Source: a virus
Virus record (IMG/VR): IMGVR_UViG_3300045988_052173
Reading direction: 5' to 3' (one strand)
Length of the DNA: 29,871 nucleotides
How positions within the stretch are numbered: position 1 is the first letter of the stretch; each line of letters opens with the position of its first letter. The translations under genes and the position numbers were made by a program. Shown here piece after piece: positions 8,512-29,594 of the stretch. The notes beneath the pieces were generated by a model. It ran no database searches. It was given only the letters and a program-made list of their open reading frames with translations, and was not told where the DNA came from.

Positions 8512-8514
8512 CTT

Positions 8515-11196: not shown

Positions 11197-11240
11197 ATGC
11201 CCCGTGGCTGGCTTGTTTGGCTGTCTGCGGGGCGTTTTTG
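11197..11240 (+). terminator. Putative terminator at the end of the late operon
   Basis: atGCCCCG (11197-11204) pairs with CGGGGCgt (11228-11235), followed by tttttgtactgtttt. The loop is large. Confidence 0.5.
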
Positions 11241-11253
11241 TACTGTTTTGGGG

Positions 11254-11523: not shown

Positions 11524-11571
11524 TGTGTTGTTCCTTTTTGTGTTGTGTCAGGTTTTCTGCCTGATGTTTTT

Positions 11572-11580
11572 ACTATATCG
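11572..11580 (-). promoter_or_regulatory. Putative -10 (cgaTATAGT on the minus strand)
   Basis: This is the reverse complement of 11572-11580. It is followed at about +1 by the conserved TCAGGCAGAAAA box and the hairpin at 11548-11564. Confidence 0.4.
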
Positions 11581-11614
11581 TAAAACGGCGTGCCGTGTTT
11601 GTGCGACACGCCGT
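11581..11614 (-). terminator. Intrinsic terminator after the XRE-family gene
   Basis: On the minus strand, ACGGCGTG-14 nt-CACGCCGT is followed by TTTTA. Confidence 0.6.
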
Positions 11615-11621
11615 GGGGGTT

Positions 11622-11948
11622 TTATTCGAGGTAAATGTCGTAGTGGAGTTCGGCATTGAGTAGTTCCCGGTGTTTCTTGCGTGGTTTCCTCAACCCGTTT
11701 TCCCATGTCATGACGACGGTCGGGCTGGAGACGTGGGCCAGTTCTGCGAGTTCCGCCTGTGTGTATCCGTACCTGTTTCGCCAGTATTTGAGTCGTTCCT
11801 GGCTGGTCGTCCGTGTTTTGACGAGAGCGTAGTCGACTGGTGTATGTTTCCCGTCGGCTGTGATGCCGTAGAAGAGGCCTGTGTGTGCGTTCTGGTGGAT
11901 CTTGAGTTCTTCGTTTCGGATGGTGATGGTGAAGAGTTCCTTTTCCAT
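11622..11948 (-). CDS. XRE-family HTH DNA-binding protein
   Basis: I prefer the start at MEKELF, which has an AAAGGAAAT SD. The C-terminal HTH reads YGYTQAELAELAHVSSPTVVMTWENGLRKP. Confidence 0.7.
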   Translation of the reverse strand: MEKELFTITIRNEELKIHQNAHTGLFYGITADGKHTPVDYALVKTRTTSQERLKYWRNRYGYTQAELAELAHVSSPTVVMTWENGLRKPRKKHRELLNAELHYDIYLE

Positions 11949-11956
11949 GGTTTTTC

Positions 11957-12244
11957 TTATTTCCTTTCGTCTGGTGTTGTGGTGTCGAGGATTTCCTCCA
12001 TGAGTTCCTCGCCTTTCTTGGTGAGTTGCCATCGCCAGCATGGCCTTTTTCGTTCGCTGATGCCGTTTCTGTCGATGCGATGGACGTATCCTTCGCGTTC
12101 TAGTTCGACCAGGCGGCTTCTCAGGCTTTGGGGCGTGTCCCGGTATCGGAAGTCTTCTGCTATTTGCGTTAACTGTTCCTGGGTGATTGGTTTTTTGACG
12201 GCGTGGAGGATTACGATTGCGTGGATTTGTGGAGTGCTGTGCAT
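11957..12244 (-). CDS. Winged-helix DNA-binding protein (MarR/PadR-like)
   Basis: The segment LRSRLVELEREGYVHRIDRNG...WRWQLTKKGEEL has the pattern of a wHTH recognition helix plus wing. The start forms a TAATG overlap with the upstream gene. Confidence 0.6.
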   Translation of the reverse strand: MHSTPQIHAIVILHAVKKPITQEQLTQIAEDFRYRDTPQSLRSRLVELEREGYVHRIDRNGISERKRPCWRWQLTKKGEELMEEILDTTTPDERK

Positions 12245-12579
12245 TAGAGTCTACTTTCTGCTTGATGCCGGTAGTAGGCGGCGATGCTTGCTGCTGTGGC
12301 CAGTCCGATGAGCCATTTGATGCCGAAGTGGATGTGGAAGGCTTTTGCGGCTGTTGTCCATGCGGGGAGTGTCATGTATGGGCTGAGGCACCATCCGCAG
12401 TGGGCGAGTGTGCTTAGGCTGCGGGTTAGGTTGTTGTCCGCTGTTTCGGTTTTGTCTGTGAGCTTGTTTCGGAGTTTGCTGAAGACGTATCCGGGTCCGG
12501 GGGATAGTTGCGTTACCGTGGTGGCGTATCCGGCTGTGAGGCCGGCGGTGATGACTGCGGTCCACCATGCTGTTTTCAT
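12244..12579 (-). CDS. Membrane protein with C-G-W-C motif (DUF1360-like)
   Basis: About 3 hydrophobic segments and the motif LAHCGWCLSPYMTL. The start forms an ATGA overlap with the upstream gene. Confidence 0.55.
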   Translation of the reverse strand: MKTAWWTAVITAGLTAGYATTVTQLSPGPGYVFSKLRNKLTDKTETADNNLTRSLSTLAHCGWCLSPYMTLPAWTTAAKAFHIHFGIKWLIGLATAASIAAYYRHQAESRL

Positions 12580-12863
12580 TGTTGGTTCCTTTCGTCGTTG
12601 TTGATGGTTTCGGCTGGGGTGTAGTGGATTTTTCCGTTGAGTAGTATCAGTGGGTATTTGATTGGTTTGTTTTGGTTTTTGGCGATGGTGCGGATTGCGG
12701 TGGCGGTGGGGCTACCGGAGGGGACGACATGTAGTTGTCGCCACATCCATTGTGCTGTTGTGTGGCATGAGTCCAGGAATTTTCTTGTTTCGGGGTTGCA
12801 TGTGGGGCAGCCGTCGAAGAGTACGTACATGTCGGGGCTGGTGAGGAGGGTGTCGATTGTCAT
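12576..12863 (-). CDS. Glutaredoxin/NrdH-like thioredoxin-fold protein (CPTC)
   Basis: The arrangement MYVLFDGCPTCNPETRKFLDS ... KYPLILLNGKIHY matches beta1-CxxC-alpha1 and the cis-Pro beta3 layout. Confidence 0.5.
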   Translation of the reverse strand: MTIDTLLTSPDMYVLFDGCPTCNPETRKFLDSCHTTAQWMWRQLHVVPSGSPTATAIRTIAKNQNKPIKYPLILLNGKIHYTPAETINNDERNQQ

Positions 12864-13765
12864 TAGAATGATGCTCCTGTTGTTTCGGTGATGGTGTCGA
12901 TGATGTGGAGGGTATTGAGTTGTTTGCGTTTGTGGTTGGTGATGAGTGGTTTGATGTCCTTTCGGTGGACTGGGATGATTTGGTGTCGTGCGTCTCCGTA
13001 GACTCGTGGGTCGTACATGCTGAAGTAGAGGGTTTCGAGCGTGTCGCAGACGACGAAGTATTGGAGGACTTGGGCTTGGTATGTGTCGGGGATGAAGTCG
13101 ATTCCGGTGGTGTTAAGGCTTGTGGCTGTTGGTGGGAGGACTTGTGCGGCCATGTCGGCGAGGTTTTCCGGGATGCCGTGGTGGAGGATGTTCTGTGAGT
13201 GGATCATCCATGGGATGACGGCTTGGAGGTGGTAGGCGCTGCCTAGGCTTTTGCATTCGATGGCCCATGTTGGGTTTTCGGATGCTTGGTAGGCGTCTGG
13301 GCTGCATGCGATTCGGTTGTCTTCGTCGCTTTCCCAGATGCCGCAGTCGGTGATGCAGTCTTTTTGCTCGTAGCCGAGTTGTTGGAGGGTGAGGGTGATG
13401 TTTTCGGGTTCGAGTCTGTGGCCGCGTGCCATGGGGTTTTCGCCGTCTGGTTGTTCGGCCATGGTTTCTGCTAGGAATTTCCAGAAGTCGATGCTGACTT
13501 TGAGGCGTTTGTTTTTGGCTTCGGCTTCGAGGATTCGTGTGTCGTAGTCTCGTGCTTTTTGGAAGTATTTGTTGGATTCTGCTTGTGTTTCCGCGGTTTT
13601 TGACTGTTCGAGGGCTTTGTCTCGGTATTCGGTGAGTTTTTTGATGTCGGTTTGTGGGTAGTGGCTCATGGCTAGGTTGCCGCTTTTGGTGCCGGTGATG
13701 CGGCCTAGGCGTTCTTGGAGCCATGCTTCCGTGTTGTTGGCTTGTGATAGGTTGATGATTTTCAT
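12863..13765 (-). CDS. YqaJ-like (lambda Exo-type) recombination exonuclease
   Basis: Motifs seen are EAWLQERLGRITGTKSGNLA, CSPDAY and AIECKS, typical of the YqaJ PD-(D/E)xK fold. The gene is adjacent to ERF. Confidence 0.75.
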   Translation of the reverse strand: MKIINLSQANNTEAWLQERLGRITGTKSGNLAMSHYPQTDIKKLTEYRDKALEQSKTAETQAESNKYFQKARDYDTRILEAEAKNKRLKVSIDFWKFLAETMAEQPDGENPMARGHRLEPENITLTLQQLGYEQKDCITDCGIWESDEDNRIACSPDAYQASENPTWAIECKSLGSAYHLQAVIPWMIHSQNILHHGIPENLADMAAQVLPPTATSLNTTGIDFIPDTYQAQVLQYFVVCDTLETLYFSMYDPRVYGDARHQIIPVHRKDIKPLITNHKRKQLNTLHIIDTITETTGASF

Positions 13766-13795
13766 TGTCGGTCCTTTCTTGAAGTTGATATATTT

Positions 13796-13804
13796 ATTAT
13801 ATCA
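13796..13804 (-). promoter_or_regulatory. Extended -10 promoter TGaTATAAT (minus strand)
   Basis: This is the reverse complement of attatatca, about 30 nt upstream of the exonuclease ATG. Confidence 0.55.
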
Positions 13805-13855
13805 GCTCGTATGTTGTTGGAAGGCATGCGGCGTGTCGTGGCTCGGATATGAGGA

Positions 13856-13880
13856 AGACCCCGGTGATGTGCCGGGGTCT
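13856..13880 (-). terminator. GC-rich hairpin after the ERF gene (weak U-run)
   Basis: AGACCCCGG-7 nt-CCGGGGTCT forms a 9-bp stem. The flanks are only weakly T-rich on either strand. Confidence 0.4.
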
Positions 13881-13884
13881 TGTG

Positions 13885-14478
13885 TCACATTCTGTTGACG
13901 GCGTCCATGAGTTTCGTCATGTCGGCTTGGGTGATCCCTCGCCAGCCTTTGACGGGCCGGCCGAGTGTGCCGCTGATGAATTCGCCGCGTGTTTCGCTGG
14001 GGATGGCGTGCGTGTCCATGGCTTTGACGAGCGTGGCGTACTGGTCGGCTCTGATCGGCTTGTCGGCGGTCTCGTACTGCTGTCGGGCGTAGCTTCCGTC
14101 GTCATCCTTGTCTGGGAAGATGCCGAGGATGGTGGTGAGGCTGTATCGGCGTGCGTAGGTGATGGCGCTGCCGACCTGTTGTGGGTCTCCGGTGACGAAG
14201 AAAGGGTATTCGCAGACCGTCATCTGGTCGGTGTCGTCGAAGATGATGGTTTCGATGGTGCCGAGGATCTGGCGGCCGTCTCCCGGGCCGTCGAAGGTTA
14301 CTTTTTGGGTGAATGAGAGTCCGTGTTTTTCGAAGATTGGTTTGATGTTTTTGAGGAGGGTGGCGAGGTTGAGGTATTTGTAGGTGCGGCTTCCGGCGTT
14401 GGCGGTTTCGTCGGTGCTGAAGTTGGGTACTTCGTTGAGGACTTCGGCGAATTTCCGGTTGAGGTTGCTGTTTTCCAT
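13885..14478 (-). CDS. ERF-family single-strand annealing protein
   Basis: AAGGAG SD is present. Motifs seen are YKYLNLATLL and QQVGSAITYARRYSLTTILGIFPDKDDDG. Confidence 0.85.
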   Translation of the reverse strand: MENSNLNRKFAEVLNEVPNFSTDETANAGSRTYKYLNLATLLKNIKPIFEKHGLSFTQKVTFDGPGDGRQILGTIETIIFDDTDQMTVCEYPFFVTGDPQQVGSAITYARRYSLTTILGIFPDKDDDGSYARQQYETADKPIRADQYATLVKAMDTHAIPSETRGEFISGTLGRPVKGWRGITQADMTKLMDAVNRM

Positions 14479-14505
14479 TGTGGTCTCCTTTGTTGGTGTT
14501 GGCTG

Positions 14506-14862
14506 TCAGTGCTTGTAGATGGGGTAGACGATGGTTTGTGGTTCGTTTTCGGTCACGTTGTTGTAGATGGTTTCGAGTGTTGCCATTCCGCCGATGTTGT
14601 ATGCCCGTGTGTAGAAGTCGATTCGTTCCGGATTGTTTTTGGTGAGTGTGTAGAGGTAGCATGCCCATTCCGCGCCGTTGTGGTCCCATTCGTAGTCTTC
14701 GAAGGCTTGGGAGTAGTCGTCGAGGGTGACGTATTTGTGGTCGCCGACGTGGTAGATGACGCCTTTTGGCGTGTGGTCGGTGTCGTAGTGGCTTTTCCGG
14801 TCGAGGCGGACGTCGATGTTGTGCATCATTGCTTTGACTTCGTCTGTGGTGATTGTGTTCAT
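14506..14862 (-). CDS. Hypothetical protein (118 aa)
   Basis: I prefer the start at MNTITTDEV, which has AAAGGAACAACAA upstream. The track ORF extends to 14889. Confidence 0.7.
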   Translation of the reverse strand: MNTITTDEVKAMMHNIDVRLDRKSHYDTDHTPKGVIYHVGDHKYVTLDDYSQAFEDYEWDHNGAEWACYLYTLTKNNPERIDFYTRAYNIGGMATLETIYNNVTENEPQTIVYPIYKH

Positions 14863-14909
14863 TTGTTGTTCCTTTGTTGTGCCTGTCAAGCCCTTTGCTT
14901 GATATGTTT

Positions 14910-14918
14910 AATATATCA
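14910..14918 (-). promoter_or_regulatory. Extended -10 promoter TGaTATATT (minus strand)
   Basis: This is the reverse complement of aatatatca. The conserved TCAAGCAAAGGG box and the hairpin at 14886-14902 start at about +1. Confidence 0.55.
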
Positions 14919-14949
14919 TAAAAGGCGTGCCACGCTAACGCGACACGCC
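14919..14949 (-). terminator. Intrinsic terminator
   Basis: On the minus strand, GGCGTG-14 nt-CACGCC is followed by TTTTAT. It shares sequence with the terminator at 11581-11614. Confidence 0.55.
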
Positions 14950-15019
14950 GTAAGACGTCAGATTCCCTGTGCCTATCGTCTCCTGTGAATGAGGGGCATC
15001 AAGAGCATCAGTATCAGGA

Positions 15020-15184
15020 TCAGAGTCCCCCAGTCAGTCTCTTCCATTCCTTCTCTTTCCTGTATTCCTTGATGACGGCTTCGATTTCCTGTCGACAATA
15101 TTGCGGGATGAGCGGGGCGAATTCGTCGACGGTCAGGCCGTCCTCATACCATTCGATGATCTGGTTCTTCGTTGCTTTCTTCAT
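15020..15184 (-). CDS. Small hypothetical protein (54 aa)
   Basis: Hand translation gives MKKATKNQIIEWYEDGLTVDEFAPLIPQYCRQEIEAVIKEYRKEKEWKRLTGGL*. An AAGGAGAAGCAA SD is present, and the start forms an ATGA overlap with the upstream ORF. Confidence 0.55.
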   Translation of the reverse strand: MKKATKNQIIEWYEDGLTVDEFAPLIPQYCRQEIEAVIKEYRKEKEWKRLTGGL

Positions 15185-15357
15185 TTGCTTCTCCTTACCG
15201 GCATGATGAATTTCATGTAATTGTCGTATATCTCTCTGACGTGGTCCTCGTTCATTGCGAGGATTTCGGCGGTCTTTTCGACCGACTGATTGAGGTCGAA
15301 GAGGTAATGCTCCGCTGCAATCCTTTCGATCGGGATGTCGTGAAGCTTGCCTGTCAT
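15181..15357 (-). CDS. Small hypothetical protein (58 aa), possible HTH
   Basis: Hand translation gives MTGKLHDIPIERIAAEHYLFDLNQSVEKTAEILAMNEDHVREIYDNYMKFIMPVRRSK*. A GAGGAGGAAAG SD is present, and there are ATGA overlaps at both ends. Confidence 0.55.
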   Translation of the reverse strand: MTGKLHDIPIERIAAEHYLFDLNQSVEKTAEILAMNEDHVREIYDNYMKFIMPVRRSK

Positions 15358-15707
15358 TTGCTTTCCTCCTCTATCATTCGGTCTAGGGCTTCGATGACCT
15401 TATGCCAGTCGCTGGTGCGGATGCCGTACCATGCGATGCGTTCTAGGCCAGTGGTTGATCGTATTAGTTCGCGTAGGATGATGTCGCACTTACCGGCGGT
15501 TTCCGTCCGTTCGTGTCTCGTGGCGGCTTTCCGTGCGTACCATCGGGCTTTCTTCAGGTCTTCGACGGGTTTTCCCTTGTCTTTGTGCCGCCATAGGTAT
15601 TTGATGGTGTTGCCGGTGCAGAAGTATTGGTGTTTGGCGAGGAGGATACATTCGTATCCGATGTTGCGGCCGGTGTAGTGCTTTGGATGGTTGACATTGT
15701 CGGTCAT
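15354..15707 (-). CDS. DUF3310-like protein
   Basis: I prefer the start at MTDNVNHPKHY. Motifs NHPKHY, GNTIKYLWRHKDKG and EDLKKARWY match the DUF3310 pattern. The upstream part of the track ORF overlaps the neighbouring gene. Confidence 0.7.
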   Translation of the reverse strand: MTDNVNHPKHYTGRNIGYECILLAKHQYFCTGNTIKYLWRHKDKGKPVEDLKKARWYARKAATRHERTETAGKCDIILRELIRSTTGLERIAWYGIRTSDWHKVIEALDRMIEEESK

Positions 15708-16138
15708 TTGTCTTCCTTTGCTTCTTTTGCGGCTTTGGCTTTGGCTCGTCTGATGCGGGCTCTCTCGTTTTGTTTCCGGATGTATTCGGCTTTCTGTTCC
15801 GGTGTCATGGCGTGGTAGCGTGCTCTCTGTCTGGCGAGCATTGCTTCCCGCCATTCCGGGTCGGTGTGGTATCGGAAGCGTGCGGTTTCGCGTTTCTTTT
15901 TCAGGGTTTCCGGTTTGCTGTGGTATTCTTTCTGTTTTTCTGCGTAGTGTTCGGCGTGTTCCGTTCTCCATTTGCGGTTTGCTTCGGCTATTTTCTCTTT
16001 GTGCCTGTGGTAGTAGCGGTAGTCGCTGATTTTGCGTCGTTCGTCTGCTGATGGTTGACGGTTGCGCATTTCGTTGACCCAGCCCATCAGGACGTCATCG
16101 TTGAGGTCGATTGGTTCCTGTTGTTTTCTTTTTGGCAT
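15704..16138 (-). CDS. Highly basic protein with about four R-x-YH-x-x-P-E-type repeats
   Basis: 144 aa. The repeats are RYYHRHKEKIAEANRKW, EYHSKPETLKKKRETARFR, YHTDPEWREAMLARQRAR and YHAMTPEQKAEYIRKQNERAR. Confidence 0.65.
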   Translation of the reverse strand: MPKRKQQEPIDLNDDVLMGWVNEMRNRQPSADERRKISDYRYYHRHKEKIAEANRKWRTEHAEHYAEKQKEYHSKPETLKKKRETARFRYHTDPEWREAMLARQRARYHAMTPEQKAEYIRKQNERARIRRAKAKAAKEAKEDK

Positions 16139-16155
16139 GTCGTTTTCTTTTCTTT

Positions 16156-16455
16156 TTAGAGGCTTTTGATGATGTAGTCGGCGATGTTTTCTTGGGTGAG
16201 ATCGTTTAGGGGTCCGCCATAGAAGACGTGGTAGGAGATTAGTGAGTCGGGTCCGTCGTATAGGTGCATTTCGGTGTCGGCCGGATCGCTGTAGGCGATG
16301 ATGTATAGTCTTTTTTCACTGTTTCGCTTTGTGATGCATATTGCTGAGTCTCCTGGTTCGCAGTCGACTTCGGTTATCGTGTAGTCGTCGCCGAGGAGTC
16401 GTAGTGTGTCTGCCATTTCGTGGTTGATGTTTCTGGGCTTGTTTTCGTTGTTCAT
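16156..16455 (-). CDS. Hypothetical acidic protein (99 aa)
   Basis: ORF with an AAAGGA SD and a coding-strand composition like its neighbours. Confidence 0.7.
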   Translation of the reverse strand: MNNENKPRNINHEMADTLRLLGDDYTITEVDCEPGDSAICITKRNSEKRLYIIAYSDPADTEMHLYDGPDSLISYHVFYGGPLNDLTQENIADYIIKSL

Positions 16456-16486
16456 TTTTTTGTCCTTTTCTTGTTTGTTTGGTTTG

Positions 16487-16777
16487 TTAGAAGAGCTGTT
16501 TGATTTCGTTGATGGCGTCGATGATGTTGAAGTCCGGGTCCATGATGTCGAGGTGGACTGTCACGTCGGGTGGGAGTTCGGTTTTTCCGGTGTCGTAGGA
16601 TGTCGCGTTGAGGGTTCCCGGTTCGGTTTCGTCTTCCGAGATGTATACGACGATGGGTGAATCCTTTTTGGTGATTGTGATGTATTCCGTGTCTTTGGTG
16701 AGGTGTTCGCCGTATTCGTGGGGGAGGGTGTCGGTGAGTGTTTTGAAGAGGATGTGTAGGTTGTCGTTCTTGTTCAT
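16487..16777 (-). CDS. Hypothetical acidic protein (96 aa)
   Basis: I prefer the start at MNKNDNLHILF, which has AAAAGGAAAA upstream. It has weak similarity to 16156..16455 (MN-N-N, DTL and ITK-S..Y-I segments). Confidence 0.65.
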   Translation of the reverse strand: MNKNDNLHILFKTLTDTLPHEYGEHLTKDTEYITITKKDSPIVVYISEDETEPGTLNATSYDTGKTELPPDVTVHLDIMDPDFNIIDAINEIKQLF

Positions 16778-16831
16778 TTTGGTTTTCCTTTTGTTTGGTG
16801 GCTTGGTGTTTCCCTTTGCCTGATATCTAAC

Positions 16832-16837
16832 ACTATA
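16832..16837 (-). promoter_or_regulatory. Putative -10 TATAGT (minus strand)
   Basis: This is the reverse complement of actata. The conserved TCAGGCAAAGGG box at 16812-16823 follows after 8 nt. Confidence 0.35.
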
Positions 16838-16870
16838 CCCACAATCGTGGTAGGACACGCCGGTGGGGTG

Positions 16871-16905
16871 AAAAAAAGGCGGCACGCTTTTTTACGCGTG
16901 TCGCC
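16871..16905 (-). terminator. Intrinsic terminator after the DnaC-like gene
   Basis: On the minus strand, GGCGACACGC-8 nt-GCGTGCCGCC (one mismatch) is followed by TTTTTTT. Confidence 0.7.
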
Positions 16906-16914
16906 TTGATGGTG

Positions 16915-17763
16915 TCAGAGGCCGAGCAGTGATTTGGCGCTCGCCATTTTGTCTTGTAGCTTCCTGCCGCGCCTGTCCACTCCTTTGACTTCGAGGCAGA
17001 TGCACATCTCCCTTAAACGGCTGAAGACGCGCTGACGGCGGATGTCTCCACGATCGGCGAAGTCCTTTGGCCCGAGGTTGGTGGTGATGATGATCGGCAG
17101 GCCGGCACGGTAGCGTGCGTCGATGACGTTCATCACCTTTTCCCACGTGAAGTCCGAATCGCGTTCCGCTCCCAGATCATCGATGATGAGGAGGTCGAAG
17201 CGGTTGAGGTCGTCGAGATATTTTTGGTCTCCTCCGAATTTTTCGCTGATTCGACTGATGATGCGGCTGAAATTGGTCATCAGGCATGGGGTGCCTTGGT
17301 TGATGAGCTCGTTGGCGATGCATGCCGCGAGGAAGCTTTTGCCGGTGCCTACCTGACCGCAGAGGAGCAGTCCGGTGCCTTGTTTGAGCATGGCGTCGAA
17401 GTTCGCCACGTATTTGCGGGCGATGGTTTCGTTCCGTTGGTCGGTGTGGTCGGATTTGGCGAAGGTCCATTCACGCATTTCCGCGTCTGGGAACCCGGTG
17501 CGTCGCATGCTGTCGAGGTATTGCATGCGGTCTCGTTTGCGTTTTTCTTCGGCTTCTCGTTCGTTCTGTTCGACGCTGCAGTCGCATGCGCAGTGGACGG
17601 TTTTTGTGGTGCCGTCGGGCTTGGTCAGGACGCATTCCTTCTGTGTGTGGCATTTGCCGCACATGAGGAGGCCGTCCTCGTTGCGGTAGTCTCCTTCGTG
17701 TTCCGCGTATTGGCGTGAGGCTCGCGTGTTGATGGTGTTGATGATGTCGATGCCGTTTTCCAT
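16915..17763 (-). CDS. DnaC/IstB-like AAA+ helicase loader with N-terminal Cys-rich (zinc-ribbon-like) region
   Basis: Walker A is GQVGTGKSF and Walker B is DLLIIDDLGAE. The PIIITTN motif is present. The N-terminus has CGKCHTQKEC...HCACDC. Confidence 0.85.
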   Translation of the reverse strand: MENGIDIINTINTRASRQYAEHEGDYRNEDGLLMCGKCHTQKECVLTKPDGTTKTVHCACDCSVEQNEREAEEKRKRDRMQYLDSMRRTGFPDAEMREWTFAKSDHTDQRNETIARKYVANFDAMLKQGTGLLLCGQVGTGKSFLAACIANELINQGTPCLMTNFSRIISRISEKFGGDQKYLDDLNRFDLLIIDDLGAERDSDFTWEKVMNVIDARYRAGLPIIITTNLGPKDFADRGDIRRQRVFSRLREMCICLEVKGVDRRGRKLQDKMASAKSLLGL

Positions 17764-17841
17764 GGTTTGGTTCCTTTTTGTTGTTTATGACAATGTTATC
17801 TCATGTGTCGTCGGCATTGTACTGCCGGCGTGTTGCGGGGG

Positions 17842-18687
17842 TTAGAAGACGCAGTTTTTCAGCCATTCTTCGTCTGCTTCCCTTTGTTTGCGTTCCTCTT
17901 CTTCTGTGAGGTCCCAGTGTGGCTGTTGTGATTGCTGTCGAGGCTTCTGCTGGTATCCGTTGTTTCGGTAGTTTTCGATTGGGAAGAAGCCGCTCCAGCC
18001 GCGGCAGACGATCTCGTCGAGGTACTCGTTGACGCTCATGTGGCTTTCCTGTGCGCGCCTGTCGAGTTTGTCGATGTTGCCTTGGATGGCTCGGTCGGTC
18101 ATTGCGGAACGCTTGGCCTTGCGGTTCTGGAGCCATGCTCCGAGGAGGTCCTTGGTGGTCGGGTCGCTGGTGTAGGCGTCGATGATGGCGTCGAAGCTTT
18201 TGGCTTTGCGGGTCTTTTTCGGTTGTGGCTTCGGTTCCGGGTTGGCGATGGGGATCTGGGGCTGTTCGGTGGTTGTTCCCGTGGCGTCGGCCCATGGGTC
18301 CTGTGCGGCTGCCGGGGCCTGTGTCGGCGTTGGTGCCTGTTCCGTGACCTGTGTCGGTGTAGACGGTATGGCGGTCAGGATGGCGGCGTAGTCGACGGAT
18401 CGGCTGCCATTGTCGTCAATGTGAGGATATTTTGCGATGAGGCCCTTGTTCACGAGTGAGCTGAGGGTCCTGTCGACGGTGTCCAGCGAGCAGCCGCACC
18501 AGTCGGCGATGTATTTACGGCTGCCTCTGAATCTTGATGTGCCGTCCTGTGAGAAACCGTAGATGAGGGCGTAGATGATGAGTGTGTTGCCTTTGAGGTC
18601 GAGCTTGGTGCGCATCCATCCTTGGATTGCGATGAAATTGTTGTCTTTGACGTTCATTTCGTTCACGCTTTTAAAAGTGAATCCCAC
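17842..18687 (-). CDS. Replisome organizer / DnaD-like replication initiation protein
   Basis: The N-terminal wHTH-like segment reads NTLIIYALIYGFSQDG...YIADWCGCSLDTVDRTLSSLVNKGLI. The C-terminal segment LLGAWLQNRKAKRSAMTDRAI...IVCRGWSGFF is typical of phage replisome organizers. The start is uncertain: GTG 18687 or ATG 18657, neither with a good SD. Confidence 0.7.
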   Translation of the reverse strand: MGFTFKSVNEMNVKDNNFIAIQGWMRTKLDLKGNTLIIYALIYGFSQDGTSRFRGSRKYIADWCGCSLDTVDRTLSSLVNKGLIAKYPHIDDNGSRSVDYAAILTAIPSTPTQVTEQAPTPTQAPAAAQDPWADATGTTTEQPQIPIANPEPKPQPKKTRKAKSFDAIIDAYTSDPTTKDLLGAWLQNRKAKRSAMTDRAIQGNIDKLDRRAQESHMSVNEYLDEIVCRGWSGFFPIENYRNNGYQQKPRQQSQQPHWDLTEEEERKQREADEEWLKNCVF

Positions 18688-18789
18688 CGACTGCTACCGA
18701 TGCACCTCAGTGGCAATCAATGGGATTCGTACCATTTCGAGCTGTACCTCCATTCAAGCGGGTGCACACTCGGAATGGCGTATGTCTTT

Positions 18790-18798
18790 AGTATAACA
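18790..18798 (-). promoter_or_regulatory. Extended -10 promoter TGtTATACT (minus strand)
   Basis: This is the reverse complement of agtataaca. It is followed by a ~95-nt leader before the replisome organizer gene. Confidence 0.5.
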
Positions 18799-18871
18799 CG
18801 TTTTTTGGATGACACGCCGAGATTTTGTGTATTTCGTATCGTTGGCGCGGTTTATGTGTGGCGCGCACGCT

Positions 18872-19189
18872 TCAGGCGAGGTCGTTGAACCTGTCGTCCG
18901 GCACCGGCGCATAGGACTTGATGACTTTGGTGTAGGTGTCGAAGCATGCTGATTCGATAAGCCCGAAGCGTTGGAGTTTATGAAGGATGGAACGGACCGT
19001 TTGGGGGTTCATGTACGGGAAGGCCTCCTCGAATCGGCTTTGGGGGAATTCCACCCAGAACCTTCCGTCGTGGCATTGCGTCCATTCCGTCGCATTGGCT
19101 TTGCAGGCGTCCACGATGAACTGGTAGACGATGGCCGTACTGATTCCGAGGTCCCCCGCGATTTCAGTGTTGAAATATTGCTCGCTCAT
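18872..19189 (-). CDS. Putative wHTH DNA-binding protein (DnaD N-terminal-like)
   Basis: 105 aa. Segments IAGDLGISTAIVYQFIV and MNPQTVRSILHKLQRFGLI look HTH-like. Confidence 0.6.
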   Translation of the reverse strand: MSEQYFNTEIAGDLGISTAIVYQFIVDACKANATEWTQCHDGRFWVEFPQSRFEEAFPYMNPQTVRSILHKLQRFGLIESACFDTYTKVIKSYAPVPDDRFNDLA

Positions 19190-19191
19190 GG

Positions 19192-19440
19192 TCAGTTCTC
19201 CTCGATGAAGGAGCTGAAGAGGCCGCGGTTGTAGAGAATGCCACTAAGCTTCGACAATGCGGTCACCGGATTGTCATACTCGTTGCATGCGATGTCCCAT
19301 GCTTCGAGTACCTCCTCATCACCAAACCTCGTGCACAGGCCTGCGAAGAACTTACGTGACTTTTTCCCACCTACCTCACTGAAGTGGACGCCGTACCGTT
19401 CAACAAGAGAACTGCCAATGGTTTCATAAACACTCATCAT
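19192..19440 (-). CDS. Hypothetical protein, possibly a DnaD C-terminal-like domain
   Basis: 82 aa with an AAGGA SD. It is the first gene of the leftward early operon. The segment EEVLEAWDIACNE...ALSKLSGILYNRG resembles the DnaB_2/DnaD repeat. Confidence 0.6.
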   Translation of the reverse strand: MMSVYETIGSSLVERYGVHFSEVGGKKSRKFFAGLCTRFGDEEVLEAWDIACNEYDNPVTALSKLSGILYNRGLFSSFIEEN

Positions 19441-19471
19441 GTAATCCTTTCATAGACTTGACGTTACTTCA

Positions 19472-19480
19472 AGTATACCA
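19472..19480 (-). promoter_or_regulatory. Extended -10 promoter TGgTATACT (minus strand) for the leftward early operon
   Basis: This is the reverse complement of agtatacca. The inverted repeat ACTTGA-7 nt-TCAAGT (19456-19474) overlaps the -10 and +1 positions, so it is a possible operator. Confidence 0.5.
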
Positions 19481-19559
19481 CAAAGCCGTAAAGAACACCG
19501 AAGGACAAACCACTCAAACGTACCCCGTAACCTCACGTCCCAACCCTCGTAACCACCCA

Positions 19560-19995
19560 ACCACCACCACCCTCCTGAGTTTCTTGAGGGAGGGAGCGAG
19601 CTCTGGTAGAGAGAGTAAGCCTTAAGAGCTGAAGATTTTGAGTGCTTCAGGTTAAGACTTAATGACTGTTTCCGTCGGTCGGTCGTTCGCACGGCGTCGG
19701 TCATAAGAGTGGCGCATTACTACCACTGGTGCGGCATACCCCATCGAGTCGCGCTACATCAGTGATGTGATGATGTCGGCACCCCGGTTATTCCATCATC
19801 GCTCGATGGGTCGGTTGAACATGCACCTCTAACGTGTGTATCAACGAGGGTTAGTCGTCGTCCCATTAACCCAAAGCAAGGACTGTCGCTGGGGAGTTGT
19901 CGTGCCTCCGCACCCAGTAAAAAAGATGGTAGACTGGATTTTCGGTTGTTTACTCACCCCATCATAGCACATCGTGCCGTGATGGGGTTTTCTAT
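19560..19995 (+). ncRNA. Candidate structured non-coding RNA (left part of the ORF-free island)
   Basis: No credible ORF. Helices are 19740-19748/19802-19810 (9 bp, enclosing nested hairpins) and 19848-19855/19865-19872 (8 bp, with a G-U pair valid only in the plus sense). The segment ends at a plus-strand intrinsic terminator. No promoter was identified. Confidence 0.35.
19957..19995 (+). terminator. Intrinsic terminator (plus strand) inside the ORF-free island
   Basis: CCCCATCA (19957-19964) pairs with TGATGGGG (19980-19987), with an inner GCAC/GTGC stem, followed by TTTTCTATT. Confidence 0.75.
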
Positions 19996-20490
19996 TACAC
20001 CATCCACGGCATCCCTTCCCCTACGCTTTTCACCGCACATGCCTTCAGAACGCACGTAAAGGCCCCTCAGACCGATTTACACGCCAAACCCGATAACTCG
20101 TCAGGACTCACCCACGACAGCCCGTCAGAAACGCCTTTACGCACGAAAGTGACGTTCCAGCACAAAACAGCACCGAAAAAGCATCGAGGACGCCAAGCAG
20201 CGAGAGGACCACACAAGCCAAGCACGGACCAACTCTCCTCCATGCCCTGACCAGATCGGATATCGGGACCAAGGCCCGAAGGGCAGCATCGAACCCCAGA
20301 CGGTATCCTCCTCGATGCTCAGAGCCATGGAAGGAGCTTCGAAGGCATCAGGTCGGATTCCATGGCTCCATGCCTCAGTCACCGAATCCATCGAGGCTAG
20401 GCTCTCATCGCTCTCAGCTCCCGATCCTTTGGGATTGGGATTGGCTCCCCTCCGGACACGCACGAGGCTCCCCGCGGGAGCCGTCTTACT
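19996..20490 (+). other. Second highly structured ORF-free segment (candidate ncRNA or cis-acting DNA)
   Basis: Helices are 20055-20063/20133-20141 (9 bp), 20180-20190/20309-20319 (11 bp), 20322-20332/20358-20368 (11 bp perfect), 20420-20427/20432-20439 (8 bp, with a plus-sense G-U pair) and 20466-20472/20476-20482 (7 bp). Confidence 0.3.
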
Positions 20491-20536
20491 TAGATTACCC
20501 ATAGAGTATCCAACCTAGATTATCCCACTAGAGTAT
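20491..20536. repeat. Two direct copies of TAGATTA-CCCA-TAGAGTAT (relatively AT-rich)
   Basis: The copies lie at 20491-20509 and 20516-20536, immediately left of the iteron array. Confidence 0.7.
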
Positions 20537-20543
20537 GGTGACT

Positions 20544-20656
20544 GATTTTGCGGCTAGGCCAACCACGATTTTGCGGCTAGGCCAACCCCGATTTTGCGGC
20601 TAGGCCGCTACGAATTTGCGGCCACCACCCTGATTGTGCGGCCGCCACTTATTGCG
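20544..20656. repeat. Iteron-like array: 5 tandem GATTTTGCGGC-type repeats (putative replication origin)
   Basis: Units start at 20544, 20567, 20590, 20612 and 20632, giving periods of 23, 23, 22 and 20 bp. The first three share GATTTTGCGGCTAGGCC. The later units degenerate to GAATTTGCGGCC and GATTGTGCGGCC, with a partial ATTGCG after them. Confidence 0.55.
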
Positions 20657-20664
20657 TCTTGGGT

Positions 20665-20696
20665 GACTGAACAAACAAGGCCCCGGCCAGTCCGGG
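20665..20696 (-). terminator. Putative terminator of the 21.5-20.7 kb leftward unit
   Basis: On the minus strand, CCCGG-actgg-CCGGG (alternatively the longer GGCCCCGG...CCGGGGCC at 20679-20723) is followed by TTGTTTGTT. Confidence 0.5.
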
Positions 20697-20741
20697 AATC
20701 TCTTCCCAAAACCAACCGGGGCCATGCCCATTCTCAGTCCG

Positions 20742-21077
20742 TCACGTCTCCTTGATGCTCATGCCGTACCGTCGTGCGAAGAGCTTGCTCTTGAGCCTGT
20801 ATACGTCGGTTCTCATGCCCTTCACGTCCTCGACGACCGTCTTGCCGTCCTCCACGTAGACGAAGTCGGCCACGTAGTAGACGGGCCGGTAATGCCTACC
20901 GTCCACGTCGAAGGACGGAATGAGCTCATAACGCACCTGACGGCGCAGATCCTCGATGCTCCCGTCCTCCTCCATGCCCTTCAGGACGAGATACCGGTCG
21001 GCTTCCTTACGTGAATCGAAGGTGATGCCGTCCACGGTCGTCTTCTTGGCATGGTATTTGCTTCCACCTCGCCACAT
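20742..21077 (-). CDS. DUF1064-like (PD-(D/E)xK-type) protein
   Basis: The N-terminus SKYHAKKTTVDGITFDSRKEADRYLVLK matches the characteristic DUF1064 opening. A GGAAGG SD is present. Confidence 0.7.
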   Translation of the reverse strand: MWRGGSKYHAKKTTVDGITFDSRKEADRYLVLKGMEEDGSIEDLRRQVRYELIPSFDVDGRHYRPVYYVADFVYVEDGKTVVEDVKGMRTDVYRLKSKLFARRYGMSIKET

Positions 21078-21569: not shown

Positions 21570-21612
21570 AATAATACCCACCCGGGAAGTCAACCGGGTG
21601 GGTATTATTTTT
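21570..21612. terminator. Strong bidirectional terminator (16-bp perfect stem)
   Basis: AATAATACCCACCCGG (21570-21585) pairs with CCGGGTGGGTATTATT (21594-21609). T-runs follow on both strands. Confidence 0.85.
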
Positions 21613-21623
21613 CCGTATCCGTG

Positions 21624-21842
21624 TCAGCGCTTGCGGTATCCGCCGCTCACGCTCTTGACGAGCCAGTAGAAGAAGTAGATGCCGCCTGTAAGGATGCTGT
21701 ATACGCACACCTTGATGAAGCCGGGGGCCTTCTTCTTGCCGCTGTCATCCGACTGTCCCATCACGTTGTTGATGATGATGGGCTGCTGCGTCGGCTGCTG
21801 GGTCGGCTGGGTTTCCGTCTGGTTGGTGTTCTGCTCGGTCAT
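21624..21842 (-). CDS. Small membrane protein (72 aa, Q/T/P-rich N-terminus, C-terminal TM)
   Basis: AAAGGAA SD is present. The TM segment is FIKVCVYSILTGGIYFFYWLV. The gene has its own promoter and a strong terminator. Confidence 0.7.
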   Translation of the reverse strand: MTEQNTNQTETQPTQQPTQQPIIINNVMGQSDDSGKKKAPGFIKVCVYSILTGGIYFFYWLVKSVSGGYRKR

Positions 21843-21899
21843 TTTTGGTTCCTTTCAATGTTGGTAGGTTTTTGATGTCCTACGTTGTTTGATGTATTC

Positions 21900-21908
21900 A
21901 TAATATCA
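21900..21908 (-). promoter_or_regulatory. Extended -10 promoter TGaTATTAT (minus strand)
   Basis: This is the reverse complement of ataatatca. It is divergent from the plus-strand promoter at 21960-21988. Confidence 0.5.
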
Positions 21909-21959
21909 CGCTCGTCATCGCAACACGCCGAACGGACGACAAGCCACCGCACACGACGG

Positions 21960-21988
21960 TTGCAATCCAAGAAAAACGATGCTATATT
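21960..21988 (+). promoter_or_regulatory. Near-consensus sigma-70-type promoter (TTGCAA-17 nt-TGcTATATT)
   Basis: -35 at 21960-21965, TG at 21980-21981 and -10 at 21983-21988. Confidence 0.65.
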
Positions 21989-21994
21989 GGTACT

Positions 21995-22076
21995 TGCCCT
22001 CATTGTGTCCTGACTTACCTCAGACAAGTGCTCAACCGGATTCCGCACCCCTTTCCTCCGGTTGAGCACTTTTTTT
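21995..22076 (+). ncRNA. Predicted ~80-nt short transcript (sRNA or attenuated leader)
   Basis: The inferred TSS lies about 7 nt after the -10. The transcript runs directly into the terminator at 22028-22076, with no ORF in between. Confidence 0.4.
22028..22076 (+). terminator. Intrinsic terminator (12-bp stem plus T7)
   Basis: GTGCTCAACCGG (22028-22039) pairs with CCGGTTGAGCAC (22058-22069), followed by TTTTTTT. The loop is C/U-rich (CCCCTTTCCT). Confidence 0.8.
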
Positions 22077-22135
22077 ATACCCAAAACCCTACGAGCCGCT
22101 CCACTCATACCAGCAATACACCGATGCGCAAAAAG

Positions 22136-22164
22136 TTGTAAGAATGTTCTAGTCGTTATATAAT
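22136..22164 (+). promoter_or_regulatory. Near-consensus promoter TTGTAA-17 nt-TATAAT
   Basis: -35 at 22136-22141 and -10 at 22159-22164. The ATG at 22172 lies 7 nt after the -10, which implies a leaderless mRNA. Confidence 0.7.
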
Positions 22165-22171
22165 GAGACGT

Positions 22172-22351
22172 ATGAACGCTAAAGATTACACTGCAACAGT
22201 CCCCGAATACGCCCAGCGCTGGAAGCTTAACATCCAGACCGTCCGCCGCTTCATCCGCGAAGGACGACTCCACGCAGTCAAGGTCGGCCGATGCTACTTC
22301 CTCGACCCGGACGTCATCCCGGACAAAGACACCCACCCCTCCAACGAATAA
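22172..22351 (+). CDS. Excisionase-family (HTH_17/MerR-like) DNA-binding protein, probably leaderless
   Basis: The sequence MNAKDYTATVPEYAQRWKLNIQTVRRFIREGRLHAVKVGRCYFLDPDV matches the HTH_17 pattern. The track start at 22163 lies inside the -10 box. Confidence 0.75.
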   Translation: MNAKDYTATVPEYAQRWKLNIQTVRRFIREGRLHAVKVGRCYFLDPDVIPDKDTHPSNE

Positions 22352-22465
22352 AAACAGGCAAACACACATAAAGGAGCCAATCCAACGAACACCGAAATCC
22401 AAACATTCAACTTCAATGCCGCACCGCTGCGCGTCCTGACCGGCGAAAACGGCGAGCCATGGTTC

Positions 22466-27782: not shown

Positions 27783-29594
27783 ATGAAGATTCGAAAGAGT
27801 CTAACTCACGGCGGTGCCGCTGAAACCGAAGGCCGGACCCTCACATTCCTCGCCAACTCCGGCAAGGTAATGTGCGGCGGACTCACCGTGGACCTCGACA
27901 CGCTCAAAGCCCCACTCATCGACGGGACCCTGAAACTCGTGTCCGGACTCGACGAATCCGACCAGCTTTCGCTCCCCCTCCTCATCGACCACATCCCAAG
28001 CGTCGAAGCACAAGCCGGCACCATCACCCGCCTGTGGACGACCAGCGACGGACTCATGGCCGAAGCGAGACTCAGCGAAGTCGACAACGGGGAACGTGTC
28101 CGCCAGCTAGCAGCCGACGGATGCCTGACCAACAGTTTCAGCATCACCGTTGAATTCACCAAACAGCCCGGCAACGACGGCATCATCCACAACGGCGAAC
28201 TGGTCGAAATCAGCGTCGTCTACCGTGGAGCCGACCCACGAGCCGCCTTCACCTCAATCAACAACCGAAATGGAGACACCATGCATCCTGACCTCATGAA
28301 CAAGCTGGCACGTACCGTCGCCGAGTTCAAACTCACCCCGGACGAAGCCGCTAACCTGACCTCGTCCATCACCGATATCATGCAGAACGCCGTCGACGAC
28401 ATCACCGAAGCAGTCGACGACCAGACCTCCGCCAACGAAGGAGACACCACAGTGAACACTGCCCCGGAAGAACCCGTCCAGTCCGCCAACAAGCGACCGC
28501 TCGTCATCATCAACAAGAGCAACCGTGCCGCCAAGCAGTCCGGTGTCGCTTCCTTCTCCCACTCCCGTGAAACGTGGCTTGACTCCCCGGACGCCATGGC
28601 CGCGTTCGAACGCACCCTCATCGACAACGACAACAAGGGCGTGGAAGCATTCCACAAGGAATGGGCCGACACCGTGTCCCGTAACATGGCCGACACCGCA
28701 TCCTTCGGTGTAGGCGCAAACGACGTGGACAAGTTCATCCCGACCGAAGCCATCACCACCATCAGCGACGCGTTGAACACGCGCGGCAGCGGCCTGTGGA
28801 ACCTGTTCCGTAAGACCGGCATGGACCGTCTCACCATCGGCGGTAACGTCCTCGGCCTGTCCGACGCGACCCGCGCACACGGCTACCCGGTCGCCTCCTA
28901 CGGCACCAAGAAGAAGGAACAGACCCCGTCCTTCGTGAAGCGTGAACTGACCGCCGACTACACGTATAAGTACATCACCCTGAACAAGGGTGATATCCGT
29001 CGTACGCAGAAGCCGGGCGCACTCCTCCGCTACATCCTCTCCGAACTGCCGAACTACATCATCCAGACCATCGAACGTCAGGTCGTGCTCGGCGGCTATG
29101 AGGACATGGCACACTTCCGTTCCATCACCGTCGACGCGGCCGACAAGTCCTCCGAATGGGCCGGCAATAAGTTCGCCCTCTCCTACACACTGACCGAGGA
29201 CACGCCGCTCATGGGCTTCGTGAAGGCTTCCCACATGGTCCGCGCACAGGGCAACAAGGTCCTCGTCTGCAACGCGGACACGGTAGCCGACCTCCTCATG
29301 AGCGCCAACGCGAACGGCAACACGTACATCGCCCTCGGCGGTGACGACACCCTCGCCCGCGCTCTCGGCGTCTCCCAGATCATCACCCCGGAATGGTGGA
29401 CTGCGGAAGACGACAAGAAGGTCGCCGGTGTCGTCATGAGCGCTTCCCACTATGCGCTCGTCGGCGACACTTCCGTCGAATCGTTCACGAACTTCGCATT
29501 GCAGACCAACACCAACGAATACCTCCAGGAAATTTACGCTGGTGGCGGTTTGGATGCTGAAAAGTCCGCAGTGGTCATCAATCCGAAGGCCTGA
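27783..29594 (+). CDS. Prohead protease (HK97 S78/U35-like) fused to an HK97-fold major capsid protein
   Basis: 603 aa. The N-terminus (LPLLIDH...AGTITRLW...SFSITVEF...[16 protein letters not shown]) matches the prohead protease pattern. The middle is acidic and coiled, like a scaffold. The C-terminal ~300 aa look capsid-like. Confidence 0.8.

Follow-up and report, generated by a model that had tools for sequence, protein, structure and literature searches.

IMG/VR record IMGVR_UViG_3300045988_052173 is a window of 29.9 kb (by which I mean the whole stretch of DNA analysed), and it amounts to the complete, circularly permuted genome of a small tailed phage. Between the leftward replication genes of this phage and a second leftward operon lies an island without any evident gene, taken here as 19441-20741. 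An earlier reading, made from the sequence alone, had seen in most of the island, about 1.1 kb of it, a candidate for large structured RNA, plus in sense and with helices throughout. Comparison with related phages divides the island instead into parts that behave differently: block B (19585-19995), block C (20000-20404), and region D (20404-20670). The first of these is the subject of most of what follows. It is a discrete cassette of about 410 nt, conserved in structure on the plus strand, optional, and mobile, and it is put forward here as a candidate stand-alone noncoding RNA (ncRNA).

The locus and its relatives

The plus strand of the genome codes for the terminase, portal, capsid, tail, and lysis genes, and the early arm runs leftward. 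To the left of the island is a leftward replication module, made up of an 82-aa gene, a gene for a 105-aa initiator-like protein, one for a 281-aa O-like/DnaD-like initiator with a helix-turn-helix domain, and one for a DnaC-like loader. To the right are leftward genes encoding a dUTPase and a DUF1064 protein. The operon of replication genes is headed by an extended -10 promoter-like motif, TGGTATACT, on the minus strand at 19472-19480. It is kept in nearly all relatives, the TG and the TA...T fixed and the spacer base and inner bases free to vary. At the other edge, the upstream operon (dUTPase, DUF1064) appears to end at a strong intrinsic terminator on the minus strand at 20672-20726, recognized as an inverted repeat and a terminator-like site, and relatives possess a stronger form of it with the tail TTTATTTTT. 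Given the terminator on one side and the conserved -10 motif on the other, the island is therefore transcriptionally insulated from both directions.

The closest isolates are Bifidobacterium phages, and the identity of the large terminase is just 49%. A search for the host by way of the endolysin gave best matches of 42-47%, in Varibaculum and Brachybacterium. At the nucleotide level the island matched nothing in 50,697 phage records or 72,556 plasmids, and positions 1-25000 of the window matched nothing in the phage records. Phages with a DUF1064 protein 50-70% identical to that of the window have no such island. The comparisons described below rest on about 33 close relatives from IMG/VR, 29-31 kb in length, and on 12 contigs from human-gut metagenomes (individual relatives and contigs are given L numbers where they need to be told apart). 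Amongst the relatives the island is 77-86% identical, the same level as that of its coding flanks, with blocks B and C ranging from 80 to 93% in bins of 30 nt.

Absence of coding potential

It is hardly credible that a protein-coding gene, whether decayed or unrecognised, accounts for the island. To be sure, the window has open reading frames (ORFs) of 84, 121, and 67 aa within the island, but these frames are not shared: open frames vary from genome to genome, no ORF in the island is conserved among relatives, and one-base insertions and deletions fall within the conserved 5' segment. Nor do the longest ORFs of the island match any PHROG family. Variability amongst relatives was also sorted by position modulo 3. 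It is flat in the island (0.096/0.111/0.092 over 19581-19910 and 0.110/0.092/0.128 over 20031-20400), whereas the same measure applied to the two flanking genes (0.237/0.056/0.087 and 0.205/0.061/0.072) exhibits a periodicity of 3- to 4-fold. The island is non-coding and under selection, and to this extent the sequence-only reading, which had found no coding potential in it, was right.

The conserved fold of block B

The folding of a single sequence is of little help. It is weakly better than that of shuffled sequences (z about -2) on both strands and hence uninformative. The alignment of 18 sequences of block B is another matter, for in it the arms of helices change their sequence and the pairing stays. 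RNAalifold folds the plus strand at -105.3 kcal/mol, and 19 of the pairs have changed on both sides. The curated structure consists of about 87 pairs in about 14 helices, and 97.8% of its cells in the 18 sequences are paired. Eighteen of the pairs (68 cells) have changed on both sides, compared with 2-5 in controls in which the pairing partners were slid, and none of 500 shuffles reaches 18. With 28 distinct sequences, the count rises to 24 pairs (133 cells) versus 3-6 in the slid controls. Column shuffling yields a z of -9.0 for the plus strand and -6.3 for the minus strand. The divergent copy of block B in contig L127 keeps 81 of the 87 pairs and adds new pair types. Selection maintains complex plus-strand pairing in block B.

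The helices, all on the plus strand, run as follows from the 5' edge. P1 (19616-19625/19652-19661) encloses the hairpin P1a (19631-19634/19645-19648), whose pair 61:77 is GC in 9 sequences and AU in 7. P2 and P2a occupy 19663-19703, pair 104:140 of P2 being CG in 13 sequences and UA in 3, and P3 (19708-19714/19721-19727) has at 152:163 a GC in 11, an AU in 4, and in L127 a UA. Beyond these lies a three-way domain, closed by the outer helix of P4 (19740-19749/19801-19810) and containing P4a (19756-19768), P4b (19769-19775/19794-19800), and P4c (19776-19787). Five pairs have changed on both sides in the outer helix, and five in P4b. P5 and P5a follow at 19814-19845, with U-G in P5 in 5 sequences, and then the hairpin P6 (19842-19860), where compensatory changes are found at 183:198 and 185:196, in 5 and 7 sequences. 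P7 (19862-19882) and P8 (19902-19913, AU in L127) precede the terminator described below. A loop-loop contact between P5a and P6 was considered and rejected, the changes there not being compensatory.

In the P4 domain the arms take several forms. The outer helix reads CATCGAG/CTCGATG in the window and CTTCAGA/TCTGAAG, CGACAGG/CCTGTCG, CCTCAGA/TCTGAGG, or CAGCAGA/TCTGTTG in relatives. The inner helix appears as ATGATG/CATCAT, GCAGTG/CACTGC, ATGGTG/CACCAT, and ATTGTG/CACAAT. In all, there are at least five variants of the arms in each of P4 and P4b. Pair 184:254 of the domain is G-U in 6 sequences, which is compatible with the plus strand alone.

The sequence-only reading had listed seven helices in the island, and all seven are present in the window, along with the G-T pairs ascribed to them. 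Presence in one genome is not conservation, however, and their fates differ. The 9-bp helix 19740-19748/19802-19810, contained within P4, is found in all 18 copies of block B, 7-9 of its 9 pairs kept through compensatory changes. That at 19848-19855/19865-19872 is not conserved (3-7 of 8 pairs) and clashes with the covarying hairpin 19842-19860. The 7-mer CATCGAG or its complement had also drawn attention, and it does indeed occur five times in the island. There are 7 copies in the whole window, against 4.85 expected, so the 7-mer is clustered in the island and not enriched overall. The alternative pairing suggested for it is particular to the window: the copies at 19742 and 19802 are the arms of a helix that has other sequences in the relatives.

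A search with all families of Rfam 15, including GOLLD, ROOL, and HEARO, found no match anywhere in the window at gathering thresholds, and none in 19200-20900 with E values up to 10 and permissive filters. ARAGORN found no tRNA or tmRNA. Since block B matches no Rfam family, the earlier surmise that this is a different class from GOLLD and ROOL is a fair one. Judged by its sequence and its alignment, block B is most likely a structured RNA that is new relative to Rfam.

Strand, terminator, and promoter-like motifs of block B

Which strand does the folding? Read on the plus strand, the curated structure has 165 cells with G-U and 20 with A-C, and ten of its pairs have an appreciable frequency of G-U, as opposed to one or two with A-C. 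To guard against circularity, a structure was also predicted from the window sequence by itself and the changes were counted in the other sequences. Watson-Crick pairs turned to G-U or A-C in 186 versus 69 instances on the plus strand and in 72 versus 91 on the minus strand. Transitions compatible with G-U stand at 1.87 in paired positions of the plus strand and 1.19 in unpaired positions, and it is on the plus strand only that they are enriched.

Every copy of block B ends with an intrinsic terminator on the plus strand (19957-19995), composed of a stem (19957-19968/19976-19987) and the tract TTTTCTAT. The sequence-only reading had remarked upon the hairpin and T-run at this site, where no plus-strand gene exists, and the conservation of both bears it out. 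The terminator pairs vary in a manner compatible with the plus strand: 440:462 is UA in 13 sequences and UG in 5, and 441:461 is CG in 9, UG in 7, and UA in 2. There is no T-run on the minus strand at the hairpin. With both the wobble bias and the T-run confined to the plus strand, it is therefore the plus strand of block B that folds, and the conserved terminator argues that the folded molecule is RNA. The plus sense claimed earlier for the whole island holds for block B, by its wobble bias and its terminator. In block C a weak signal favours the minus strand.

The beginning of the putative transcript is less plain than its end. The sequence TTGAGG-17-TAGAGA upstream of block B is not conserved as a -10 element among relatives. 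A plus-strand promoter within the 82-aa gene (19251-19280) was considered as well and rejected, as it is not conserved. In the foreign context described in the next section, TATCAT stands 6-7 nt upstream of the conserved 5' edge of block B.

At the 3' end, two extended -10-like motifs face one another. One, TGGTAGACT (TGGTAKAYT), lies on the plus strand at 19927-19935, about 20 nt before the terminator hairpin. Its pattern, TGnTAnnnT, is present in 14 of 17 distinct sequences bearing block B, the window included, with TGG, TGC, or TGA at the spacer, and it is kept in the foreign context too. The other, TGCTATGAT (TGCTATRAT), is on the minus strand at 19961-19969, inside the 5' arm of the terminator. 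TATRAT is found there in 18 of 18 copies and the TG in 11 of the 17 distinct sequences, again including the foreign context. The two are possibly promoters, and would then point to an arrangement of sense and antisense. They may instead be functional parts of the RNA of block B and of its hairpin, and the minus-strand motif may be a by-product of the hairpin sequence.

Block B is an optional, mobile cassette

Block B is carried by 18 of 30 close relatives. Its boundaries are sharp, and where it is absent the junctions are clean, with about 30 nt of unrelated sequence in place of the cassette. At its left edge the window has a C/A-rich tract of low complexity (19500-19584), variable in length and sequence among relatives and missing where block B sits in other phages. 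Within the close family, the presence or absence of block B does not track the type of initiator, loader, or replication module.

Block B is found as well in the 12 human-gut metagenome contigs. Two unrelated and larger gut-phage contigs, of 34.8 and 39.7 kb (L123 and L127; accessions OGXR01000293.1 and ORUI01000862), carry it at about 80% identity. There the unit spans exactly from TGTTTCTTGAGGG to the T-run of the terminator, and the flanks are unlike those of the window. The left neighbour of block B in both contigs is a small leftward gene for an HNH endonuclease, divergent from it, and beyond that is a ParB-like/methyltransferase gene. Between the cassette and these genes one sees the palindromic CTATCATAG, which offers -10-like hexamers on both strands. 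In L127 a leftward gene for a membrane protein ends just to the right of the terminator of block B, converging on the minus strand. Neither in the window nor in L127 is there a plus-strand gene downstream of the terminator. Block B is an autonomous, optional, horizontally mobile cassette.

How far does the family extend? The motif of block B has no match in the species genomes of GTDB, hence there is no host copy or prophage to be found there. A covariance model of helices P2-P4 retrieved no more copies from 820 kb of other loci. A search within the phage for antisense targets of the conserved single-stranded segments of block B found none.

Block C

Block C (20000-20404) is a conserved, G+C-rich, non-coding block of about 400 bp adjoining the iteron region. 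Nearly all relatives possess it, with 85-90% identity, and it shows no codon periodicity. RNAalifold finds just 42 pairs on the plus strand, with a covariation term of about 0. It finds 98 on the minus strand, 9 of them changed on both sides, which is not clearly above the 1-8 of the slid controls. The column-shuffle z is -3.5 for the plus strand and -5.4 for the minus strand, and what wobble bias there is favours the latter. The sequence-only reading had named covariation in related phages as the check on its proposal: it is found in block B (18 pairs versus 2-5) and not convincingly in block C (9 versus 1-8).

Of the three helices that had been read in block C, two are inverted repeats. One, CGTAAAGGC / GCCTTTACG (20055-20063/20133-20141), has 7-9 of its 9 pairs in all 25 sequences and is never compensated. 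Another, GAGCCATGGAA / TTCCATGGCTC, with CCATGG (20322-20332/20358-20368), lies within a unit that is duplicated together with origin repeats. Both are near-invariant and therefore carry no information for or against pairing. The third, 20180-20190/20309-20319, does vary: every relative loses 1-4 of the 11 pairs, keeping 7-10, and in 8 of 24 relatives the 3' arm is CCTCCTTGC with no compensating change. A mini-hairpin, GCCC-GAA-GGGC (20274-20284), has undergone two independent compensatory changes from CG to AU, at two positions.

A different kind of feature is the tandem pair of ARGCAYCGA motifs on the plus strand at 20166-20188, about 10-11 bp apart, detected by Tandem Repeats Finder (TRF) as repeats of period 10. 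A second pair is found in relatives at about 19483-19503, just upstream of the leftward promoter, and is degenerate in the window. In 26 relatives there are 17 and 23 hits at about 20170 and 20180 and 7 and 12 hits at about 19480 and 19490, all in one orientation. The occurrence of the pair both in block C and beside the leftward promoter suggests protein-binding DNA, and the pairs look like predicted binding sites of a single DNA-binding protein. Altogether, the pattern of conservation suggests that block C is a cis-acting element tied to the origin or to regulation. It may be origin-associated or regulatory DNA, or it may be a minus-strand RNA.

Region D, a predicted origin of replication

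Region D begins with a variable spacer (20404-20489) that exists in at least two unrelated versions among relatives. The last two of the helices read earlier, 20420-20427/20432-20439 and 20466-20472/20476-20482, are short hairpins within this spacer, and within the version like that of the window they show no compensation. Next come short repeats of 13-14 bp (TAGAGTATCC..., 20490-20538), possibly a DNA-unwinding element. An array of 12-16-bp repeats, varying in sequence, is found in all of the 25 distinct relatives scanned except L005 and L014. Adjacent to these repeats, at about 20544-20642 on the plus strand, repeat and pattern searches found an array of iterons, five direct copies of GATTTTGCGGCTAGGCC... 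spaced 20-23 bp apart. Such arrays, with a period of 20-23 bp and 2.5-5 copies, occur in 18 of the 25 relatives and are of several unrelated sequence types. TRF reports no 20-23-bp array in seven relatives (L004, L005, L013, L021, L023, L029, and, its second module aside, L041).

The type of iteron goes with the type of initiator. Where the iterons are of the GATTTTGCGG type, the N-terminal helix-turn-helix domain of the 281-aa O-like initiator is 73-85% identical to that of the window, and where they are of other types the domain is at most 67% identical or has no match. Because the iterons track the DNA-binding domain in this way, region D looks like an iteron-type origin of replication, a prediction from sequence. 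The iterons are outside the initiator gene, about 1.9 kb away. There are no iteron-like repeats inside that gene and no DnaA boxes in the island.

In four relatives (L010, L022, L023, and L025) the segment corresponding to about 20303-20494, with its CCATGG inverted repeat, is present in two tandem modules, each having repeat arrays of its own. L041 has a weaker and shorter second match to the segment (nhmmer E 4e-16). The right end of block C has thus been duplicated along with the repeats, and therefore at least that part of block C belongs to the origin unit. The tandem modules often hold two different types of iteron, as with CCTCATTTTGAG and TCGATACC in L025.

It was considered that the physical ends of the genome might lie at the iterons. 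This was rejected, as the contig ends are breaks in circular assembly within perfect tandem repeats. In four relatives (L020/L102, L024/L113, L012, and L027) the contig stops inside such an iteron array, 176-204 nt beyond the DUF1064 gene, and its termini overlap by 19-77 nt.

Strand composition and other features of the genome

The genome has a very strong keto/amino skew between its strands, with GC skew reaching +/-0.5 and AT skew +/-0.67. Whatever the orientation of the genes, G and T predominate on the plus strand from about 4700 to 19300, and A and C on its other half. The switches fall at about 4500-4800 and about 19300-20000, the latter at the island. The G/T-rich strand encodes the tail genes at 5000-11200 and the A/C-rich strand every other gene, a division that is mirrored in the composition of the proteins. 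As a rule, a skew of the polarity seen at the island is the mark of converging forks, not of forks setting out. No origin-like feature is present at the other switch (about 4700, inside the tape-measure gene), and the evidence from skew and that from iterons could not be reconciled. Block B folds on its plus strand. Forks that leave the iterons leftward would expose the minus strand, and if the skew is read in the usual way, forks coming from the left would expose the plus strand. Opposite real genes there are shadow ORFs of 380-400 aa (for example, on the minus strand, 8605-9753, 10021-11157, and 28254-29450), which encode low-complexity sequence rich in Arg, Pro, His, and Thr. The skew between the strands is what produces them, since stop codons are scarce on the A/C-rich strand.

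Some observations concern other parts of the genome. A divergent control region (21600-22460) separates the leftward dUTPase operon from rightward genes for an antirepressor and SSB, and it has extended -10 motifs on both strands, TGATATTAT at 21908 (minus) and TGCTATATT at 21980 (plus). Neither the list of ORFs nor a scan of 11 products against Pfam or PHROGs revealed a recognisable gene for an integrase or a repressor. The window ends (29716-29871 and 1-57) inside a tandem repeat of 36 bp, GGTCCTAAGGGTGACGTCGGTCCGACTGGCCCCGCT, which codes for collagen-like Gly-X-Y in an ORF that extends from 29598 across the junction to a stop near 166-168. Its copy number may reflect the collapse of repeats in assembly.

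A proposed composite island

How are these parts to be put together? I propose that the island is composite, an origin-like region beside an inserted mobile cassette, block B, which specifies a stand-alone, trans-acting ncRNA, and I consider this on balance the probable state of affairs. The iterons at about 20544-20642 would be bound by the neighbouring O-like initiator. Along with the 13-mer-like repeats (20490-20538) and block C they would constitute the origin-like region, and region D would fire as the origin. Block B would have been inserted, as an independent mobile cassette, between that origin and the leftward promoter. Its plus strand would be transcribed rightward from a start near 19585 and the product released at the Rho-independent terminator, as an RNA of about 410 nt with some 14 helices, including a three-way junction. 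The RNA would then act in trans on a factor of the host or the phage, as an accessory "moron" RNA (for instance, a protein-binding decoy serving host takeover or counter-defence), rather than by antisense pairing or by way of the replication machinery.

The idea of a single RNA of 1.1 kb finds no support. The terminator of block B splits the island, block B is optional and mobile, block C lacks convincing covariation, and region D is a region of iterons. The earlier observation is confirmed in part, and its interpretation was right for about 40% of the island.

Several considerations weigh against this proposal. The family of block B is a narrow one, with some 30 copies, about 84% identical, from one group of human-gut phages, and the counts of covariation therefore include inherited changes. 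Covariation by its nature cannot separate RNA from folded single-stranded DNA. No conserved sigma-70-type promoter is evident upstream of 19585 in the phage family of the window. The two facing -10-like motifs at the 3' end of block B, about 12 nt apart, are not accounted for by a simple RNA gene, and the polarity of the skew at the island is that of a terminus, not of an origin. The function proposed for block B is drawn from its genomic context.

Under a first alternative, block B would be a folded element of single-stranded DNA, either a strand-specific signal for initiation or primosome assembly or a single-strand promoter, exposed on the plus strand near an origin or terminus. In its favour are the strand-specific pairing, the position of block B adjoining the iteron region, and the failure to find a canonical promoter upstream. 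Furthermore, block B folds on the plus strand and block C seemingly better on the minus, in each case the strand that is locally richer in G and T around the switch at about 20000. Against it, every copy ends with a conserved, textbook hairpin and U-tract, and block B is optional and also resides far from any iterons, beside an HNH endonuclease gene. Fourteen helices in 400 nt far exceeds the known single-strand initiation signals, and leftward forks from the iterons would be expected to expose the minus strand. I judge this unlikely, while granting it a real minority share. Another alternative casts block B as one half, the countertranscript, of a cassette for sense/antisense control. A minus-strand promoter within the terminator hairpin (TGCTATRAT, 19969-19961) would make a long leader for whichever leftward gene lies past the cassette, and the structured plus-strand RNA would pair with that leader, as in the control of plasmid copy number. 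In plasmid countertranscript systems the terminator of one RNA overlaps the opposing promoter, and the plus-RNA terminator of block B overlaps the putative minus promoter in just this way. The TATRAT is in 18 of 18 copies and the TG in 11 of 17, the foreign context included, and in both contexts the cassette is directly upstream of a leftward gene. Against this, the -10-like sequence may be no more than a consequence of the hairpin arm, and the base frequencies are such that about 2.5 matches to TGnTAnnnT are expected by chance in an island like this one. The leftward operon already has a conserved promoter of its own (19472-19480), the 410 nt and roughly 14 helices are far beyond what known countertranscripts need, and 12 of 30 relatives lack block B, the genes that it would control being unaltered there. 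This too is unlikely.

Perhaps there is no RNA at all, the whole island being origin or regulatory DNA and the helices protein-binding inverted repeats or chance palindromes. Blocks C and D fit this description well. Their inverted repeats are invariant and never compensated, ARGCAYCGA pairs occur at the promoter and in block C, iterons and short repeats are present, the type of iteron varies with the domain of the initiator, and part of block C is duplicated along with the repeats. What the description cannot accommodate is block B, whose arms vary freely with pairing kept (at least five variants each in P4 and P4b), whose asymmetry between G-U and A-C favours one strand, and which comes and goes independently of the origin. 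As an account of the whole island I find it improbable. The opposite extreme, one RNA of about 1.1 kb, or block B as a cis-acting leader or riboswitch gating plus-strand transcription into block C and the origin, is very improbable. It has in its favour that block B is directly followed by a terminator and then by conserved sequence, that a terminator-like hairpin lies on the plus strand at 20466-20482, and that the plus strand of block C is A/C-rich, like sense strands elsewhere in the genome. But 12 of 30 relatives keep block C without block B, other phages have block B without block C, consensus folds yield no helix between the two, the plus strand of block C is without covariation, and a leader would have no plus-strand gene to serve downstream, in the window or in L127.

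I return, then, to block B as a mobile cassette for a trans-acting ncRNA. That it moves between phage lineages points to a self-contained function. A bolder version has it that block B founds a new class of large, intricately folded, mobile phage RNAs that act in trans, whether as a component of a ribonucleoprotein, a decoy against a host defence or enzyme, or a ribozyme, and that travel as a self-contained cassette between unrelated gut phages. I offer this tentatively, and would sooner expect it to be wrong than right.

Well-supported ncRNAs that exceed 300 nt, have many helices, and have no assigned function are few, and past examples proved to be ribozymes, scaffolds of ribonucleoproteins, or self-assembling cages. 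Block B is a tractable case, lying as it does in a small genome of 30 kb from a human-gut phage, and since it is optional, there are natural plus and minus variants for comparison. Its structure is unusually well supported for an element of a metagenomic phage. Candidate structured RNAs of viruses have been catalogued on a large scale (PMC10690425). The region D evidence provides a first map of the predicted origin region in this uncultured group of phages, complete with swappable specificities of iteron and initiator and tandem double origins, and the region brings to light a very strong skew between the strands, with a polarity at odds with the apparent origin.

Comparison with known systems

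The predicted origin resembles those of lambda-type phages and the ORF-free origins of phages of lactic acid bacteria. In region D, as in those, four or five direct repeats lie about two helical turns apart, and they adjoin genes for an O-like/DnaD-like initiator and a DnaC-like loader and co-vary with the DNA-binding domain of the initiator. It differs from the lambda type in having its iterons outside the initiator gene (about 1.9 kb away), in its lack of a DnaA box, in its G+C-rich conserved block, and in the reversed polarity of its skew.

The proximity of block B to this region calls to mind RNA II and RNA I of ColE1 and the countertranscripts of other plasmids. A folded RNA of several hundred nucleotides would run toward the origin, and a promoter-like motif on the opposite strand overlaps the terminator. 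Unlike the elements of ColE1 or of pT181-type plasmids, block B is dispensable (absent from 12 of 30 relatives), independent of the type of initiator and loader, and found away from origins as well, and its terminator is about 500 bp short of the iterons, unlike the situation in ColE1. The G4-type ssi, the phiX174-type pas, and the plasmid sso are likewise strand-specific, non-coding clusters of hairpins near an origin. Those examples are about 70-300 nt in length and have one to three hairpins. Block B is larger, ends with a U-tract terminator, and occurs away from origins.

In its manner of distribution, block B is like a phage moron, being present or absent among syntenic relatives, with sharp boundaries, its own terminator, and a second genomic context. 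Its cargo, though, is a structured non-coding sequence and not a protein gene, and within the family no clear promoter was found at the 5' edge. In its substance, it invites comparison with GOLLD and ROOL. Like them it is a long, many-helix, non-coding element of phages, supported by covariation and accessory to the genome. It differs in having no similarity to the Rfam models (E up to 10), in its length (about 410 nt versus roughly 600-800 nt), in its confinement so far to one group of human-gut phages with about 30 copies, and in the company it keeps: GOLLD and ROOL are typically near tRNA genes, whereas block B is beside a replication origin region or an HNH endonuclease gene.

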